Of a stretch of DNA of 64,000 nt, positions 44,042 through 54,952 are shown one piece after another. The DNA is from a virus. Taxonomy: Duplodnaviria; Heunggongvirae; Uroviricota; Caudoviricetes. Location: IMG/VR virus record IMGVR_UViG_2579778873_000001, positions 9,557 through 73,556 of that record. One strand, written 5' to 3'. The translations under genes and the position numbers were made by a program. The stretch's first letter is position 1; each line of letters begins with the position of its first letter. The notes under the pieces are model-generated. The model was not told the origin of the DNA, ran no database searches, and saw only the letters and a program-made list of their open reading frames with translations.

Positions 44042-44536
44042 TTATAACTTTTCGTACTGAAGCGGTGAACGCTTAATTTCAAAGTGGCCTTCCGATGTGC
44101 TACCAAAGCCACCAGCACCACGTTCCGTTTCGTTGAGTTCCTCAACCTCGACTAGTGAGACTTGTTCAACACGTTCAAAAATTCCTTGCATGACAGCCAT
44201 TCCAGGCTTGAGACAAACGCCTTCCCCGCCGGGATCAGTAATCAGTTTTGCCATGATTTCGCCGCGATAATCGGAGTCGATAATTCCTACGCAGTTAGCC
44301 AGGCGAGTATGTTTTTTGCAGCCCAATCCGGATCGCGGATAGAGTTTCAGACACCAGCCGGGCGGGATCTCCATAGCCAGTCCGGTATACACCCACCAGC
44401 TTGAGGAAATTGCACCATTGCTATCGACGCATGGTTTTATTTCAACAGCCTCAAAATCCATCGCCGCCGATCCGGAGGTGGCATAAGCTGGAAGTTTTGC
44501 TGCCGGATGTAGGCGTTTCACTTTTACGTAAATCAT
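44042..44536 (-). CDS. dut: dUTP diphosphatase (trimeric dUTPase)
   Basis: Motifs GIIDSDYRGEI and RGAGGFGSTSE. Confidence 0.85.
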   Translation of the reverse strand: MIYVKVKRLHPAAKLPAYATSGSAAMDFEAVEIKPCVDSNGAISSSWWVYTGLAMEIPPGWCLKLYPRSGLGCKKHTRLANCVGIIDSDYRGEIMAKLITDPGGEGVCLKPGMAVMQGIFERVEQVSLVEVEELNETERGAGGFGSTSEGHFEIKRSPLQYEKL

Positions 44537-45009
44537 TGTTTTTTAGCTCTCTGCGTGAAGGTGTAAACCCGACGTTTGATATGTGGAACGGTAGGAACAG
44601 GAAGACAGGAACTTTCAATAACTCCTTGCTCCTCCAGCGATCGCACCGCCCGCAAGAACTGCGACGTGTCGCCGCCAAACTGGCGGGCATAGGTGCTGCC
44701 GTTATGAAGTATTTGAGCTATTACCCGAGCTTTTGTCTGGCTGTCACGATATGCGAATAGCCGCACAGCCTCTTCTGGCGCAATCGCTAACTGATAGCCT
44801 TTCGCGGCACGGTGTCGAATGAATCCATGCGCCAGTAGGTTTTTGAGTTCGTTACGAGTGCGAACAGATCCGTAATCCAGGAAGTGTGGATTGATAACGA
44901 CTGGCTTAAACCATTCCGTAGGTGCTTTAGCTAATAGAGCTAACAGCTTCCCGGATAATTCTGGATAGGAAGACGGGTAACAATTCAGAGATGTGTAATA
45001 AGTTTTCAC
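44533..45009 (-). CDS. Hypothetical protein
   Basis: 158-aa ORF coupled to dut. Confidence 0.4.
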   Translation of the reverse strand: MKTYYTSLNCYPSSYPELSGKLLALLAKAPTEWFKPVVINPHFLDYGSVRTRNELKNLLAHGFIRHRAAKGYQLAIAPEEAVRLFAYRDSQTKARVIAQILHNGSTYARQFGGDTSQFLRAVRSLEEQGVIESSCLPVPTVPHIKRRVYTFTQRAKKQ

Positions 45010-45350
45010 CGACGCCCCCTTGCAGGATAGCGACCTGCATTAGTATCCGGTGCAATAAAGCCGGTAGTGGGGCGAGTGAAAGCGAGATTAATCTTCTCGA
45101 CCATAGTGCGATAATTTTCCTGATAGTGGGCCAGGAGTTTTTCGGCGGCAATGATGGTTACTTTCCGGACGTAGCTTTCTGCTTCCTCCAGATTTCGCCA
45201 GTTTTTTTCGAGGGTAAACACAGGGACGGCCTCAAGCCCGGTCATGATGCCGAACACAACGACAGCATGACTGTTCTTAACACCAGCAGCGAAGGTTACG
45301 GTGTAACCATCCACCTTGAAGCGTCTTGATTCCGTGATTTGACTCTGCAA
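45006..45350 (-). CDS. Hypothetical protein, first gene of an operator-controlled operon
   Basis: 114-aa ORF with an operator about 55 bp upstream. Confidence 0.4.
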   Translation of the reverse strand: MQSQITESRRFKVDGYTVTFAAGVKNSHAVVVFGIMTGLEAVPVFTLEKNWRNLEEAESYVRKVTIIAAEKLLAHYQENYRTMVEKINLAFTRPTTGFIAPDTNAGRYPARGRR

Positions 45351-45423: not shown

Positions 45424-46452
45424 TTACGAATCCATCAGGCGGCTATTAGCCCCCACAGACACACCGCCACGGCGCAGATACCGCATAAGTGTTTCCGGTT
45501 TCTTCCAGGTTCCTTCCTGCATGATCTCCACCATAGACACCTGCTTTTCAGCCATATCAATAGCGGCCCCGACGCGTGCACTATGCCCGGTCCACGTCCG
45601 GTATCTCCCTTTGTTTGGCGTAGCATCTCTTTTATTCAGCAACACCCAGGCGTCGCTGAATATTTTCTCCATTGCAGGTGCAGTAAGGGGCGTTGTCGTG
45701 ATCCTGGCCTTATTGCTACGGTGTATCGGCGGGAACAGCACTGCGTCACGATGTTCGCGAAGCCCGGAAACATCCAGCCAGTCATTCAGCACAGCGGTAG
45801 TGCGACGGGAAAGCACCTTATCAAGCCCGGCGGCGGTCGTTATTGTCTTCGTGTGTGAAATATGTAGCGTGACAGTGTCACCTGTTTGGTCCAGATCTCC
45901 TACACGAATACGCGAGATTTCCGACATACGCATCAGCGTATTGTATGCAACAAAGAGAAAAGCCCGGTTGCGCAGGTCCACCAGCCGTTCTGACCTGGAC
46001 AACAGGACGTCGAGCAGTTTCAGATCGTCCCACCGCAGCGGTATAGCCTGGCCTGTTCGTTCGCCTTTTTCAGTTGCCGCTTCGCGCCGGATGCGCCGCA
46101 TAGCCAGAGAAACACTTTTATCATCCGAAAGTGGCGGAAGGCCACAATGCGAAAGCAGCATGTTCAGCATGGCGTAGTGCTTATCAATGGTGGTCGAAGC
46201 CAGATCGGCATCATGCAGCTGAAGAAAATACTCGCGGGCCATTTCTGGTGAGATCGGGAACCAGGCGAGCTGGCGAGCGTGACACCAGCGCGCCCAGGAA
46301 TGAAACACCAACCGGAGGTCGCGCAGAGTATTCGGCGCATAAGCCCCCTGGTCATTCATGAACCGCATAAAGTTTTCTGCGGCTTCCTGGTACTCTTTGC
46401 CAATGTTGCGCAGAAAACCACCGGAACTGCCAGAGATAATTAATTCTCCCAT
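45424..46452 (-). CDS. Cre-family tyrosine recombinase (Dre-like)
   Basis: 342 aa colinear with P1 Cre (WFPISPE, LNMLLSHCGLPPLSD, AFLFVAYNTLMRMSEISRIRVGDL, WTGHSARVGAAIDMA, LMRYLR); rox-like site 150 bp upstream. Confidence 0.85.
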   Translation of the reverse strand: MGELIISGSSGGFLRNIGKEYQEAAENFMRFMNDQGAYAPNTLRDLRLVFHSWARWCHARQLAWFPISPEMAREYFLQLHDADLASTTIDKHYAMLNMLLSHCGLPPLSDDKSVSLAMRRIRREAATEKGERTGQAIPLRWDDLKLLDVLLSRSERLVDLRNRAFLFVAYNTLMRMSEISRIRVGDLDQTGDTVTLHISHTKTITTAAGLDKVLSRRTTAVLNDWLDVSGLREHRDAVLFPPIHRSNKARITTTPLTAPAMEKIFSDAWVLLNKRDATPNKGRYRTWTGHSARVGAAIDMAEKQVSMVEIMQEGTWKKPETLMRYLRRGGVSVGANSRLMDS

Positions 46453-46604
46453 GAAACTATTTCGCCTCTATATACATATGACGCTACGCGAAAAATATAA
46501 AAATGACAGGGTAGCTATAAGTTAATTTTCAAAATACAAGCCTTTGATTCGAGGCACGTATTTTCAGTGATGTCAATACTGTTCATCTACACATGATTAT
46601 AGCC

Positions 46605-46636
46605 TAACTTTAAATAATCCCCATTATTTAAAGTTA
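46605..46636. other. rox-like recombination target site (14-bp inverted arms, 4-bp spacer)
   Basis: TAACTTTAAATAAT-CCCC-ATTATTTAAAGTTA: perfect 14-bp inverted repeats; arms match the D6 rox arms as recalled, spacer CCCC. Confidence 0.65.
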
Positions 46637-46816
46637 TAAAATGCCGATTTTTTTTGTAATCCATCATAGATTGATGATGGACAGTAACACGTTGCCTTCA
46701 TGGTCTTTAATTTGCGAAGTGTGGTTTCAACGGTTGGTTTTCTAAAGTTGATGACAAAAAAATCATAGTTCGATCCTTTACTCACTCTGTTATTCGACAT
46801 AGATTTGTCATAGGGA

Positions 46817-46849: not shown

Positions 46850-47887
46850 ATGAGTAAGAAGTCGATCGAGAAAGAGTACAAACGGTTCCTGCAAACCGCT
46901 GAACGGTGGAAAGAGCTGGTGGTCGCAAACTCTGTTTTCCATGATACCAGTTATGCTGGCGAGGAATTCCGCCACGTTGCACTAACACACGACCAAAATG
47001 TACTAGAAGAAGCTGAAAAGTGCCTCGCAGAATGGAAAGCCTTTGTTGACTTGTGCCGTAATGCTGACGGCAAAGCGTCTAACATTGTTGAGTCTGTATA
47101 TTCTCCGATCCCATTCATCATTGAGGACACCAATCAAAGCACGCATGTTGTTGTGCAAAGCGCTACAACAACACGTACATTTACACGTGAACAATTGCTC
47201 AAAAAATACGACAAAATCATAAAGAAAAGCCTGAAAAATAGGGTTTTTTCTCAAATCGTAGGTGCTCTTGAAGAAGAACAGCGCTTCTTTGAAGCTGAGC
47301 CTGAAGGCGAGGTCTACCGGGCGCGTAAAGAGGCATATACAGATGTTGTGCTGACAACAAACATCGAAGGCAGCAATGCCCTTTCTCGCTTTAGAGTTGG
47401 CGCACATGGCGCATTCGTTTTCGCAAAACTACCGAAGACAACGATCCCCGTTGTCAATAATGTTGGTGAACGCCGTAGCATTACAATTTATTCTGGCGTC
47501 GAATCGGTGCCTTGCAGCCTTCTCGGCGACTTTAGCTTATATCGTGTTCGTGACCTGGAAAAACATCAGCCAAGCTACGTTGCGAAGTCGTATATCTTAA
47601 GGAACATCGATATCCGCAACGAAAACCTTAAGCAGAAATCAGCTAAGATGCTGGAGGATGCCGATCCGGCTATTCGCCATATCATTGAACGTAAGATTCG
47701 TACATCGCGTGAAGCAATGGCAAGGCTGGATAAAATGGATCTGGAATTGTTAGACGTAATGATGGCCTCTGGAGACGACCTGACCGGCATCAAACTGAAT
47801 GAAGCGCGTAAAAAATACGGCAAAGCAATCGAAGAACGTTACGGATACACATTCCCCCAAACGCAGCGCGCCGCAAAGCTCTGGTAA
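46850..47887 (+). CDS. Hypothetical protein; positional candidate for the C1-type master repressor
   Basis: 345-aa ORF in the position the c1 operon holds in P1 (divergent from the recombinase across the lox-like site, convergent with pacB) with an operator in its promoter; no sequence-level confirmation. Confidence 0.4.
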   Translation: MSKKSIEKEYKRFLQTAERWKELVVANSVFHDTSYAGEEFRHVALTHDQNVLEEAEKCLAEWKAFVDLCRNADGKASNIVESVYSPIPFIIEDTNQSTHVVVQSATTTRTFTREQLLKKYDKIIKKSLKNRVFSQIVGALEEEQRFFEAEPEGEVYRARKEAYTDVVLTTNIEGSNALSRFRVGAHGAFVFAKLPKTTIPVVNNVGERRSITIYSGVESVPCSLLGDFSLYRVRDLEKHQPSYVAKSYILRNIDIRNENLKQKSAKMLEDADPAIRHIIERKIRTSREAMARLDKMDLELLDVMMASGDDLTGIKLNEARKKYGKAIEERYGYTFPQTQRAAKLW

Positions 47888-47915: not shown

Positions 47916-49424
47916 TTATATATCCAGATCCGGCATTTCGATATCCGCCAGAACCTGATCTCGGAAAGTTGCCATTTCGGCACCAATATCTTCATTAGCA
48001 GGCACATAGTCCACCAGCATAGTGAAGCAGTAGGTATCCCATCGGTCAGGCGATTTGATGTTTAGCTTTTGCCGCATGTGCTCTTTGCGCATCATCGCCA
48101 TTTTCCCTTCTTCATTCAGTAAAAAGGGGATTTTTGACGCTTGCTCTGCCGTTTTAGAGTCACTGTCTATCCGCATACGCCCTGACTTTATGGCATCACG
48201 CGCCATAATATTTGCGTAGGCTCGCTGATTAACAAATCGCTCCCTGTCTTTGTTCGCAAACATGGGTTTTCCCCACCGAATACGTACCGGGTTCGCACCA
48301 CGACGCACCAACTGCGCACACGTATCAGAACCAAAACCATCAGCATCAACCGCGATTGTTATATTCGGGTATTTTTCCGGCGTACATTCGTTATATATGA
48401 AGTCAGCAAAGGCCAATGGGTCCATAGTGCCAGGCATCTCCATTACCTTAAAGTTAACAACGCGCCGCTTATCCCTGTGACCTGATACCTTGCAGATGTT
48501 GAGGACCGACTTATCTCGCCCATTACCAACGTCAGCCGTTGCCACCCATCCCCAGTTTTTCTCCAACAACACCTTGCGGCGAGCAGCGCGATCGCATTCA
48601 TCACGACCAAGCAAATAGCCGTTAATTTCTCGTGGGAACTGACCAAGCACCTTGACCATGTACTCAATAGAATCGCGCCCGCCATATTCCAGAAGCTTCT
48701 CCTTGATGAATTGTGGTGTGACGAACGGTGATTCTTCCGAGTTAAGAACAATTGCTGTCCAGATCCCTTTCGGGTTGTCTGGGGTTTTTGCTCGAGAATG
48801 GTGCGAATCGTAGAAATAACCACTTGGCCTTGTTGGCTGGGATAGCATCAACATCCGGTTATCTTCTTCAGTAAGAGCACCGGTCATTACGCCGATCGCC
48901 TTATCAGATATACCAGATGCTTCATCCAGAATTAGAAGCAAATGTGCCGCGTGTTCCCCCGCCAGCGCTTCTTCGTTGCCGAGTCGATAACCTTTGCAGA
49001 GAACTTCCCAAATCCCCTTACGGGAGCGCTCATAAAACATGGTGTCAGAGAGGACAAAATAGGTCTGCAACCACCCATGACGCTTAACTGCATTCGCCCA
49101 ATACTGTTTAACGTATTTGAATACGCCTGTTTTTACCTGGCCTATCTTGTTAGCAACAATGATGACACGGGCATCGGGGAACAGGATCATAAAAATCAAC
49201 AGCAACATCGCGGTAAGGGACGACTTCCCCGTTCCGTGTCCGGACGTGACGGTAGTCCTACTCCCCGTTTCCTGTACGGACTGAATGATCTGCTGCTGCT
49301 GGTGGGAGGGGAACATCCCAAAAATATCGACAACAGCCTGGGTAAAGTTGTAGCGGTATTTGATTACCATATCGCGCCAGCGTGGATCTCTGGTGACGCA
49401 TTTAACCTTGCGCCTGCCAGCCAT
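47916..49424 (-). CDS. pacB: Terminase large subunit (PacB-like)
   Basis: 502 aa with Walker A TSGHGTGKSS and downstream acidic nuclease-type residues; coupled to the upstream small subunit. Confidence 0.7.
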   Translation of the reverse strand: MAGRRKVKCVTRDPRWRDMVIKYRYNFTQAVVDIFGMFPSHQQQQIIQSVQETGSRTTVTSGHGTGKSSLTAMLLLIFMILFPDARVIIVANKIGQVKTGVFKYVKQYWANAVKRHGWLQTYFVLSDTMFYERSRKGIWEVLCKGYRLGNEEALAGEHAAHLLLILDEASGISDKAIGVMTGALTEEDNRMLMLSQPTRPSGYFYDSHHSRAKTPDNPKGIWTAIVLNSEESPFVTPQFIKEKLLEYGGRDSIEYMVKVLGQFPREINGYLLGRDECDRAARRKVLLEKNWGWVATADVGNGRDKSVLNICKVSGHRDKRRVVNFKVMEMPGTMDPLAFADFIYNECTPEKYPNITIAVDADGFGSDTCAQLVRRGANPVRIRWGKPMFANKDRERFVNQRAYANIMARDAIKSGRMRIDSDSKTAEQASKIPFLLNEEGKMAMMRKEHMRQKLNIKSPDRWDTYCFTMLVDYVPANEDIGAEMATFRDQVLADIEMPDLDI

Positions 49425-52707: not shown

Positions 52708-52783
52708 TGGTGGCCCCTACCGGACTTGAACCGGTGACCGTGCGATTATGAGTCGCCAGCTCTAACCACTGAGCTAAAGGGCC
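52708..52783 (-). tRNA. tRNA with CAU anticodon (ileX-like tRNA-Ile2, or Met)
   Basis: 76-nt cloverleaf read by hand: acceptor GGCCCTT/AGGGGCC, anticodon loop CTCATAA, T-loop TTCAAGT, encoded CCA; close to E. coli ileX as recalled. Confidence 0.8.
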
Positions 52784-52937
52784 AGATTACTGTTAATTCC
52801 GCTTACGCTTTTTGCCAGGACCGCGTAAGGCTTTTGCTGCTTGCTCGACCCCATATGCAACCACCAGCAGAAATAAAAATGTCCACCAAGGGTTCTTGTC
52901 GGCAAACGTCCAAAATTCCATCATGTTCTCTATTTGG

Positions 52938-53765
52938 TTATTTCACCGGAACAAACGGAACAGCGGTATTACTGGTCATATACTGCGGTAGCGTTCCGTT
53001 CCATTTGTTGATCGCTTCCAACTCCATAACGCCGGGGTTCTGGCGCAGAGCCTCACCGCGTAAACGAATGGCATCAGCTTCAGCCTGGGCTTTTGTGCGA
53101 ATGGCATCGGCCTGTCCGGCAGCTTCTGCGCGCAGCATGTTGGCTTCTGCTTCGCGTTGCTTGACTTCCTGCTCGCGTTGCAGAGTTTTCTGGTTCGCCG
53201 TGACTTTGGCATTAATGCTGTCGATAACGGTTGGCGGGTACTCCGGCTTGCCCACATATGAGAGGCTCATTACCTGAATACCGATGGGCGTCATTTCTTC
53301 CTGGATGTCTTTAAGAGCTGCATCCAGCAGTTCAGACTTGCCACCGTCGATAAATTTGTCGGTGGTCATTTTGCTGGCCAGTCGGTTAAGTGCGTCGGCA
53401 ATCTTCTGGCGCAGGTCGGTGTCGGTAATGTCATCCACGCCTTTGCGGTAGGTCTGAAATACAGTTGTGACTTTTGCCGGATCAACCTTGTAAGCTACAC
53501 CAATGTGGTAACCAATTGTTGTCCCGTCGCTCATTTGGAAGCTGAACGGATCATCATAGGTCTTCATTTGCTTAAAGGTCGGGAAGATATAAACTTCTGT
53601 GTTCCAGCCTGTCCAGTAGCGACCAACGCCAACTACTTCGCCGACACCTTTATCATCCCCCAGCTTATTTACTTTGATCCCTACATTGCCTGGTTCTACC
53701 CGGTCGCATCCGGTCAGACATAAAGAACCAAAAATAATCGCTGCACTAATCAACGTTTTTTTCAT
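52938..53765 (-). CDS. SPFH/band-7 family lipoprotein (Plp-like)
   Basis: Lipobox LTGC after a signal peptide; C-terminal Ala/Glu/Arg-rich coiled-coil typical of SPFH proteins. Confidence 0.6.
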   Translation of the reverse strand: MKKTLISAAIIFGSLCLTGCDRVEPGNVGIKVNKLGDDKGVGEVVGVGRYWTGWNTEVYIFPTFKQMKTYDDPFSFQMSDGTTIGYHIGVAYKVDPAKVTTVFQTYRKGVDDITDTDLRQKIADALNRLASKMTTDKFIDGGKSELLDAALKDIQEEMTPIGIQVMSLSYVGKPEYPPTVIDSINAKVTANQKTLQREQEVKQREAEANMLRAEAAGQADAIRTKAQAEADAIRLRGEALRQNPGVMELEAINKWNGTLPQYMTSNTAVPFVPVK

Positions 53766-53983
53766 TAATCAATTTCCTGGATTTTTTTGCGAAAAAAGAC
53801 TACTGCAAAAGCCGGGTAAATGAGCGCGAGAAGGACTCCCAACAATACAAGTATTGTGCTGTCAGATGAGATCATATTTGGCAAAAGCCAAACATACAGA
53901 ACCAGTGACACAATCAAACAGAGGACGACATAAATATATAGCCGCACCCATAGCGTTCGACATTTGTTCGGATTGTTCTGCAT
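53765..53983 (-). CDS. Small integral membrane protein (Upl-like)
   Basis: 72 aa with two hydrophobic helices; coupled to the lipoprotein gene. Confidence 0.45.
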   Translation of the reverse strand: MQNNPNKCRTLWVRLYIYVVLCLIVSLVLYVWLLPNMISSDSTILVLLGVLLALIYPAFAVVFFRKKIQEID

Positions 53984-54246
53984 CCTCTCACTCCATTATT
54001 TAACGAATAAAAAAGCTGCGGTGCCTGGTGCCTCCAGGTGACGTTAACCAGTTAACAATTAACGCCGGGATGTTTGATTTAACCACTAATAAGGATTGTT
54101 TTAACTGTTCCGCGTGCGCTTAGCCGCATTCACCGCAATGGTAAGAGCACTTGGCTGGCTGGGCGGCGATGACGCCTGTACGCATTTGGTGATCCGGTTC
54201 TGCTTCCGGCATTCGCTTAATTAGCCAAATACTCTTAACGTTGCGC

Positions 54247-54332
54247 TGGCGGAGAGTAATGGAATCGAACCATCATCGCTTGCGCAATGGGACGGTTTTC
54301 AAGACCGCTTGAGCACCATGCTCCCTACTCTC
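54247..54332 (-). tRNA. tRNA-like element with Ser-type anticodon loop (UGA); non-canonical, possibly degenerate
   Basis: Acceptor GGAGAGT/ACTCTCC plus G and CCA, anticodon arm CGGT-CTTGAAA-ACCG, long variable hairpin with GCAA loop, T-loop TTCGATT; but 5-nt D-loop and A at position 8. Confidence 0.3.
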
Positions 54333-54474
54333 CGGCCGTTGTGGTGGCCGGTACTGAATCTCCGGCATACGGTGCAGCCAATTAGGACTACGGACGATCA
54401 CCGCTCGCGAAAGGGAAGATTTGCGGCCGCATTTCCCTAACATCCAAGAAAGCTATCGCATCAGTCTGCGAATC

Positions 54475-54574
54475 CACCACAACGTTGAGAACACTGGTTG
54501 TCACGCTGCCTCGCGACATTTATTCATAGATTGGGATATGATCCCGTTACGCCAATGTTCTCAACGTTGTGGTG
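54475..54574. repeat. 19-bp perfect inverted repeat flanking a 62-nt loop
   Basis: caccacaacgttgagaaca (54475-54493) and its reverse complement (54556-54574); right arm runs into a 12-nt copy of the tRNA-Thr 3' end. Confidence 0.5.
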
Positions 54575-54798
54575 CCGGTTACGGTTCCGGCCAGGCCTCT
54601 TCCTCAACGGGGTGTTCTCCATACGGACTACCGTTTATTGGTCGTTCCTGCGGTTTATGTTGTGAAGCCAGATGCTTATCTTCTGGTTGCTTCAAAGAGC
54701 TGCACTTCATCACAACGGTAAGGGTACTTCGTAGGGATTCGAACCCTCTGCCAAGCACGGCGATCTCCGACGTCGCAAAATACCCTTACCTGTTGTGT

Positions 54799-54874
54799 TG
54801 GTGCCGGTTAACGGACTCGAACCGCTGACATCCTGCTTACAAGGCAGGCGCTCTACCAACTGAGCTAAACCGGC
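54799..54874 (-). tRNA. tRNA-Thr (UGU)
   Basis: 76-nt cloverleaf: acceptor GCCGGTT/AACCGGC, anticodon loop CTTGTAA, T-loop TTCGAGT, CCA encoded. Confidence 0.85.
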
Positions 54875-54876
54875 AT

Positions 54877-54952
54877 TGGCGATGGTGGATGGATTTGAAC
54901 CATCGACCCGTTGATTAACAGTCAACCGCTCTAACCGCTGAGCTACACCATC
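54877..54952 (-). tRNA. tRNA-Asn (GUU)
   Basis: 76-nt cloverleaf: acceptor GATGGTG/CACCATC, anticodon loop CTGTTAA, T-loop TTCAAAT, CCA encoded; 2 nt from tRNA-Thr. Confidence 0.85.

Follow-up and report, generated by a model that had tools for sequence, protein, structure and literature searches.

The site-specific recombinase Dre and its target rox belong to Escherichia phage D6 and were reportedly described in an original paper by Sauer and McDermott in 2004. Together they are a standard genome-engineering tool, used beside the Cre/loxP system of phage P1, for which genome cyclisation and the resolution of plasmid dimers are established roles. Cre/loxP and Dre/rox are reported not to cross-react (PMC12331466). 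The published site, roxP, reads TAACTTTAAATAATGCCAATTATTTAAAGTTA (PMC4777119), and the eight bases at its centre are numbered A1 T2 G3 C4 C5 A6 A7 T8 in the same study. Much of this central region can be varied: a rox library with the central 4 bp randomised (NNNN) recombines at about 0.9 (PMC4777119), the symmetric sites roxsym1/2 work with Dre, and the enzyme also recombines pox, lox8, lox11 and lox2, each of which has another spacer. Dre is thus tolerant of many non-native central sequences.

The locus considered here lies in a 64-kb stretch of viral DNA, referred to below as the window, in which the gene order dut-orf3-orf2-dre-rox-c1-pacB is that of the immC/pac region of D6 (AY753669). 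Its features are as follows.

44042..44536, 44533..45009 and 45006..45350, minus strand: homologues of dut, orf3 and orf2, respectively, downstream of dre and ordered as in D6.
45424..46452, minus strand: dre; its 342-aa product is a tyrosine recombinase of the Cre type and represents an allele of Dre from phage D6.
46453..46849, no strand assigned: the intergenic region between the divergent genes dre and c1, containing rox and 97% identical to D6.
46605..46618, no strand assigned: left arm of rox, TAACTTTAAATAAT, the dre-proximal Dre half-site, the same as in published roxP and D6.
46619..46622, plus strand: central spacer of rox, reading CCCC, or GGGG along the coding strand of dre; GCCA in D6.
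46623..46636, no strand assigned: right arm of rox, ATTATTTAAAGTTA, the c1-proximal Dre half-site, the same as in published roxP and AY753669.
46850..47887, plus strand: homologue of the c1 phage repressor, assigned from the open reading frame, synteny with AY753669 and the annotation of CP125036.1.
47916..49424, minus strand: pacB, the B subunit of the terminase/pacase, assigned from the open reading frame and synteny with the D6 annotation; in P1-type phages, this part of the genome is the pac-c1 region.

A 24-kb piece of the window is about 97% identical to the D6 genome and, given this match and the conserved gene order, the sequence identifies the window as part of a D6-like phage-plasmid of the P1 family, that is, a plasmid prophage of E. 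coli. The same dut-to-pacB order is carried by many non-mobilizable plasmids of about 90 kb from E. coli, Salmonella and Shigella. No record identical to the window was present in three annotated collections; the best match, CP125036.1, is 98.9% identical and has a GCCA spacer. No sigma-70-like promoter was detected between dre and c1 by a simple consensus scan, so nothing indicates that the altered spacer affects one.

The gene at 45424..46452 had been assigned in the original prediction to the Cre family as a 342-aa protein colinear with P1 Cre, and both points stand: residues 22-341 align with residues 21-340 of Cre (phmmer against Cre structures, E = 1e-67), and the Pfam family Phage_integrase (PF00589) is matched at 62.5 bits against a cut-off of 27.1. 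The family assignment can be sharpened, as the protein agrees with D6 Dre (AAV84949) at 340 of 342 positions over its full length (99.4%), with S2G and P235R as the sole substitutions. With this degree of identity there is no new recombinase here, and the enzyme, judged from its amino acid sequence, is Dre itself. The catalytic residues, placed by conserved motifs and by alignment to Cre, are all present (R175, K202, H290, R293, W316 and Y325). At the nucleotide level, dre differs from the D6 gene at 26 positions, with 23 synonymous and two non-synonymous codon differences, an imbalance that indicates purifying selection on the gene. Among 27 full-length Dre alleles compared, G2 occurs in three, while R235 is seen in the window Dre only, one other allele having H at this position. 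The P235R codon lies at 45749-45751 on the minus strand, and the region of Cre aligned with it forms the loop VADDPNNY.

The target site is a perfect 14-4-14 palindrome, TAACTTTAAATAAT-CCCC-ATTATTTAAAGTTA, located on the plus strand at 46605..46636 and 152 bp upstream of the dre ATG, in agreement with the distance of about 150 bp given previously. It is the single match to the rox pattern within the 64-kb window with up to three mismatches allowed, and none of 100 dinucleotide-preserving shuffles of the window contained a match (0/100). With rox defined according to PMC4777119 and the GenBank annotation of AY753669, both arms are identical to those of published roxP and of D6, as had been proposed, and the annotated D6 site is placed and oriented in the same way with respect to dre and c1. 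Base-by-base alignment with the AY753669 site leaves only two differences, G to C at 46619 and A to C at 46622. The GCCA spacer given previously for D6 was likewise correct, being borne out by AY753669 and PMC4777119, and CCCC is therefore a real variant; the alternative that D6 itself has CCCC next to an identical protein does not apply, its spacer being GCCA and its Dre differing at two of 342 residues. In the published numbering, the 8-bp region of the window (46617..46624) reads ATCCCCAT and that of the wild type ATGCCAAT; positions 3 and 6 are thus altered, and the wild-type base is kept at 2 (T, 46618) and at 7 (A, 46623). The spacer, although not the canonical GCCA, is still 4 bp long and asymmetric. 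A short distance from the site, at 46655-46656, the window has a 2-bp insertion (TG) relative to D6, following a T-run and 19 bp to the right of rox.

Compared with its closest described relative, the locus thus has the 14-4-14 layout, the identical arms, a rox site 152 bp upstream of dre and the same flanking genes as the Dre/rox module of phage D6 (AY753669, MF356679), and differs from it by the CCCC spacer in place of GCCA, by the substitutions S2G and P235R in Dre, and by a divergence of about 3% in the surrounding DNA. It is a known Dre/rox system in a relative of D6, with a rare natural spacer allele. Cre/loxP of P1 is likewise built around a tyrosine recombinase, which is colinear with Dre and shares its catalytic residues; its target, too, is a palindrome with an asymmetric core, found immediately upstream of the recombinase gene within the pac-c1 region of a plasmid prophage, and the two systems presumably have the same roles. 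The homology is clear but distant, however; the arm sequence is another one, and the asymmetric core is 8 bp in loxP compared with 4 bp in rox.

The rarity of the allele was assessed in three sets of natural sites. Pattern scans of IMG/VR and metagenomes returned 43 loci, of which 37 had GCCA (34 with perfect arms, the exact wild type, and three with the C arm), three GCTA and three ACTA; CCCC was absent, both with the exact arms and with the right arm ATTATCTAAAGTTA. Approximately 200 full-length rox-like sites in PLSDB comprised 111 exact wild-type sites, no exact CCCC site and one CCCC site with ATTATCTAAAGTTA (L025). Among 156 rox-bearing records in the complete genomes of E. coli, 94 were exact wild type, one was an exact CCCC site (L027) and two had CCCC with ATTATCTAAAGTTA (L028 and L029). 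CCCC is a real but rare natural allele of rox, accounting for about 1% of natural sites or less. A full-text literature search found no paper with the CCCC-rox string or the variant arm, and the spacer allele has apparently not been described before. A scan of genome contigs gave a sole match, in a Clostridia MAG (L024:6381-6412, OZ007016.1), with exact rox arms and a TAAT core, which was rejected as rox; the match is part of a more extended A/T palindrome separating convergent genes, no recombinase gene lies in the vicinity, and it is probably a chance AT-rich terminator hairpin.

A homopolymer that is this scarce in the databases could invite the explanation that an ordinary D6-type rox was misread or misassembled. 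Such an error would have had to replace two bases by C (G in one case and A in the other) and leave the length unchanged, which is atypical of homopolymer errors, and the identical 32-mer is found in an independent complete plasmid, E. coli pCR-0543_3 (L027), whose 1,551-bp dre-rox region shows 96.9% identity to that of the window. The spacer also recurs in three more independent assemblies (L025, L028 and L029), which come from different countries and hosts. Because CCCC is seen in five independent assemblies, an artefact was rejected, and we regard the chance of one as negligible.

The distribution of spacers among natural elements does not track the phylogeny of the recombinase. By nucleotide identity to the dre of the window, the loci retrieved fall into four lineages, at 96-99% (the D6 type), about 87%, about 79% and about 68%, and four natural spacer alleles were found: GCCA, CCCC, GCTA and ACTA. 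All four occur in the 79% lineage, while the D6 type carries GCCA and CCCC. The left arm is the same in all four lineages, and the only variation in the right arm is a T/C polymorphism at its sixth base, at which the window has the D6-type T. The left arm was held fixed in the pattern scans, which cannot by themselves reveal arm variants; in the dre-linked rox loci examined, it was identical in 48 of 48. Example rox loci in the spacer survey (L001-L050) are L033:2089-2120, L038, L041, L048 and L007:3706-3737.

The 79% lineage, which is 90% identical at the protein level and is often found on IncY plasmids, represents a sister Dre of IncY and P1-like E. coli plasmids (WP_063073394.1; pLAO8, NZ_OP242222.1). 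It has the same left arm and module layout as the window, with either ATTATCTAAAGTTA or ATTATTTAAAGTTA as right arm; its protein has 35 substitutions relative to D6 Dre in 342 residues, its gene is about 79% identical and its flanks are different. The CCCC spacer adjoins this 90%-identical enzyme as well, being shared with the window by L025 and L029. That CCCC might be the lineage-specific spacer of the sister clade was considered and rejected, as the clade also has GCCA, GCTA and ACTA. The polymorphism between ATTATCTAAAGTTA and ATTATTTAAAGTTA is represented by L025:3001-3032, L028, L029, L030, L032, L038, L039, L043 and L050; the ATTATCTAAAGTTA arm makes rox slightly asymmetric in many natural elements and is carried by several right-flank haplotypes. 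A few E. coli chromosomes (e.g., NZ_CP010143.1, 4688429-4689730) and large conjugative plasmids also carry a sister Dre-like gene with a rox-like site, and in L029 such a gene and site are flanked by IS1 copies; this suggests that the chromosomal and conjugative-plasmid copies are captured fragments of phage-plasmids.

Spacers were found to differ between elements that are otherwise nearly the same. The window and L026 have 16 differences in 2400 flanking positions and two in the four of the spacer (Fisher p = 3e-4). Likewise, L028:3001-3032 and L050 have 8 differences in 2400 and two of four (p = 9e-5), and L029:3001-3032 and L043 have 5 in 2154 and two of four (p = 5e-5). Flank divergence in these pairs is thus 0.2-0.7%, and the switch has occurred in at least three near-identical backgrounds. 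In the comparison with the spacer of L028, L039 was grouped with L050. The haplotype on the c1 side is common to the window, L027 and L026, the last of which has a GCCA spacer. The TG insertion at 46655-46656 marks the c1-side haplotype that holds the CCCC allele of the window; it is common to the window and L027, and L026 has a near-identical version that is one base shorter.

Stepwise point mutation from GCCA to CCCC is disfavoured by this low flank divergence and by the missing intermediates: neither GCCC nor CCCA, in either arm context, was found in PLSDB or in the complete genomes of E. coli. Since spacers differ within near-identical flanks and one-step intermediates are not seen, the core was probably acquired as a block from a different element with a rox site; two independent point mutations are less likely. 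One possible route is that Dre recombined different elements residing in the same cell, which were then resolved again; very short gene conversion would be an alternative. Discrete, swappable core alleles between arms that are near-invariant down to about 68% nucleotide identity in dre may be a hint of Dre-mediated exchange between natural phage-plasmids.

Taken together, the locus is best read as a Dre/rox module in which CCCC is a functional, if rare, spacer allele, a reading to which we assign a probability of roughly 0.85; activity on CCCC is predicted by analogy with the sites that Dre is known to process. The recombination of the NNNN library, of roxsym1/2 and of pox, lox8, lox11 and lox2 are the reasons for which the CCCC site is taken as a functional rox, and its asymmetry and the wild-type bases at positions 2 and 7 also count in favour of it. 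As in Cre/loxP, Dre monomers would bind the two inverted 14-bp arms, two copies of rox would synapse within a Dre tetramer, and Tyr325 would cut on either side of the central region, with strand exchange proceeding through a Holliday junction. In the life cycle of the element itself, the partner sites would always be copies of one site, provided either by the terminally redundant ends of the infecting DNA or by the two copies in a plasmid dimer. With partners that are always identical, any asymmetric spacer that Dre can process should work. By analogy with P1, the most likely role of Dre/rox here would be genome cyclisation and plasmid-dimer resolution, in which the CCCC site would serve as the recombination target.

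Counting against a functional allele is P235R, unique to the window among the 27 Dre alleles compared, and this substitution, with the rarity of the spacer, could instead be taken as a sign that the site is the decaying, non-functional remnant of a disused system. Such decay is difficult to reconcile with two perfect 14-bp arms, an intact dre with a strong synonymous excess, a whole pac-c1 module that is syntenic with D6, and an enzyme that tolerates many central sequences, and we consider it very improbable. For a functional CCCC allele, the low frequency could reflect a mild disadvantage of the allele.

A further proposal, which builds on the distinct specificity suggested in the original prediction, is that CCCC-rox is heterospecific, recombining with itself and not with GCCA-rox, such that a separate specificity would form an isolation barrier between D6-like elements. 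The published evidence on the compatibility of the two spacers conflicts (PMC4777119 versus PMC12331466). In single-copy experiments with B. subtilis, rox pairs recombined only if four uninterrupted identical bases were present in one half of the 8-bp region, and rox12 with rox62, mismatched in both halves (positions 2 and 6), gave no recombination (PMC12331466). This "4-bp unilateral homology" rule of 2025 predicts that CCCC and GCCA are incompatible, ATGCCAAT and ATCCCCAT being mismatched at position 3 in the 5' half and at position 6 in the 3' half. The hybrid spacers GCCC and CCCA would be expected from crossovers between GCCA and CCCC, and none was seen among roughly 400 natural sites, which also agrees with incompatibility. 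The rule was built only on variants that keep GCC at positions 3-5, however, and in E. coli, sites from the library of randomised central 4-bp sequences recombined almost completely when paired with wild-type roxP (about 0.9, similar to the wild-type control; PMC4777119; Chuang 2016).

The incompatibility screen of the same study was skewed to positions 2 and 7 rather than 3 and 6 (PMC4777119). Its engineered sites rox7, rox8, rox12, rox61 and rox85 (Chuang et al., 2016) resemble the site of the window in having wild-type outer arms and an altered centre, but they change the innermost arm bases 2 and 7 and keep GCC at 3-5, whereas the window changes 3 and 6 and keeps 2 and 7. The published determinants of heterospecificity, that is, changes at positions 2 and/or 7, are accordingly absent from the window rox, which differs at 3 and 6 only. 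In addition, the allele sits in several backgrounds of the GCCA type, for which exchange between unlike spacers is the easiest explanation. Weighing these observations, we think heterospecificity a credible proposal that is somewhat less probable than compatibility with GCCA-rox. The broader notion, that GCCA, CCCC, GCTA and ACTA are functionally distinct compatibility types that limit Dre-mediated cointegrates between co-resident or superinfecting D6-like phage-plasmids and are sometimes swapped en bloc between lineages, is more speculative and we consider it unlikely. If it were true, the CCCC site would have evolved naturally into a heterospecific rox whose arms are still entirely wild type.

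A natural rox with wild-type arms and a different core could offer an additional variant for genome engineering; the practical gain would be small because heterospecific rox sites already exist. Elsewhere in the window, four tRNA genes are found on the minus strand at 52708-54952 (Met-CAT, Ser-TGA, Thr-TGT and Asn-GTT).
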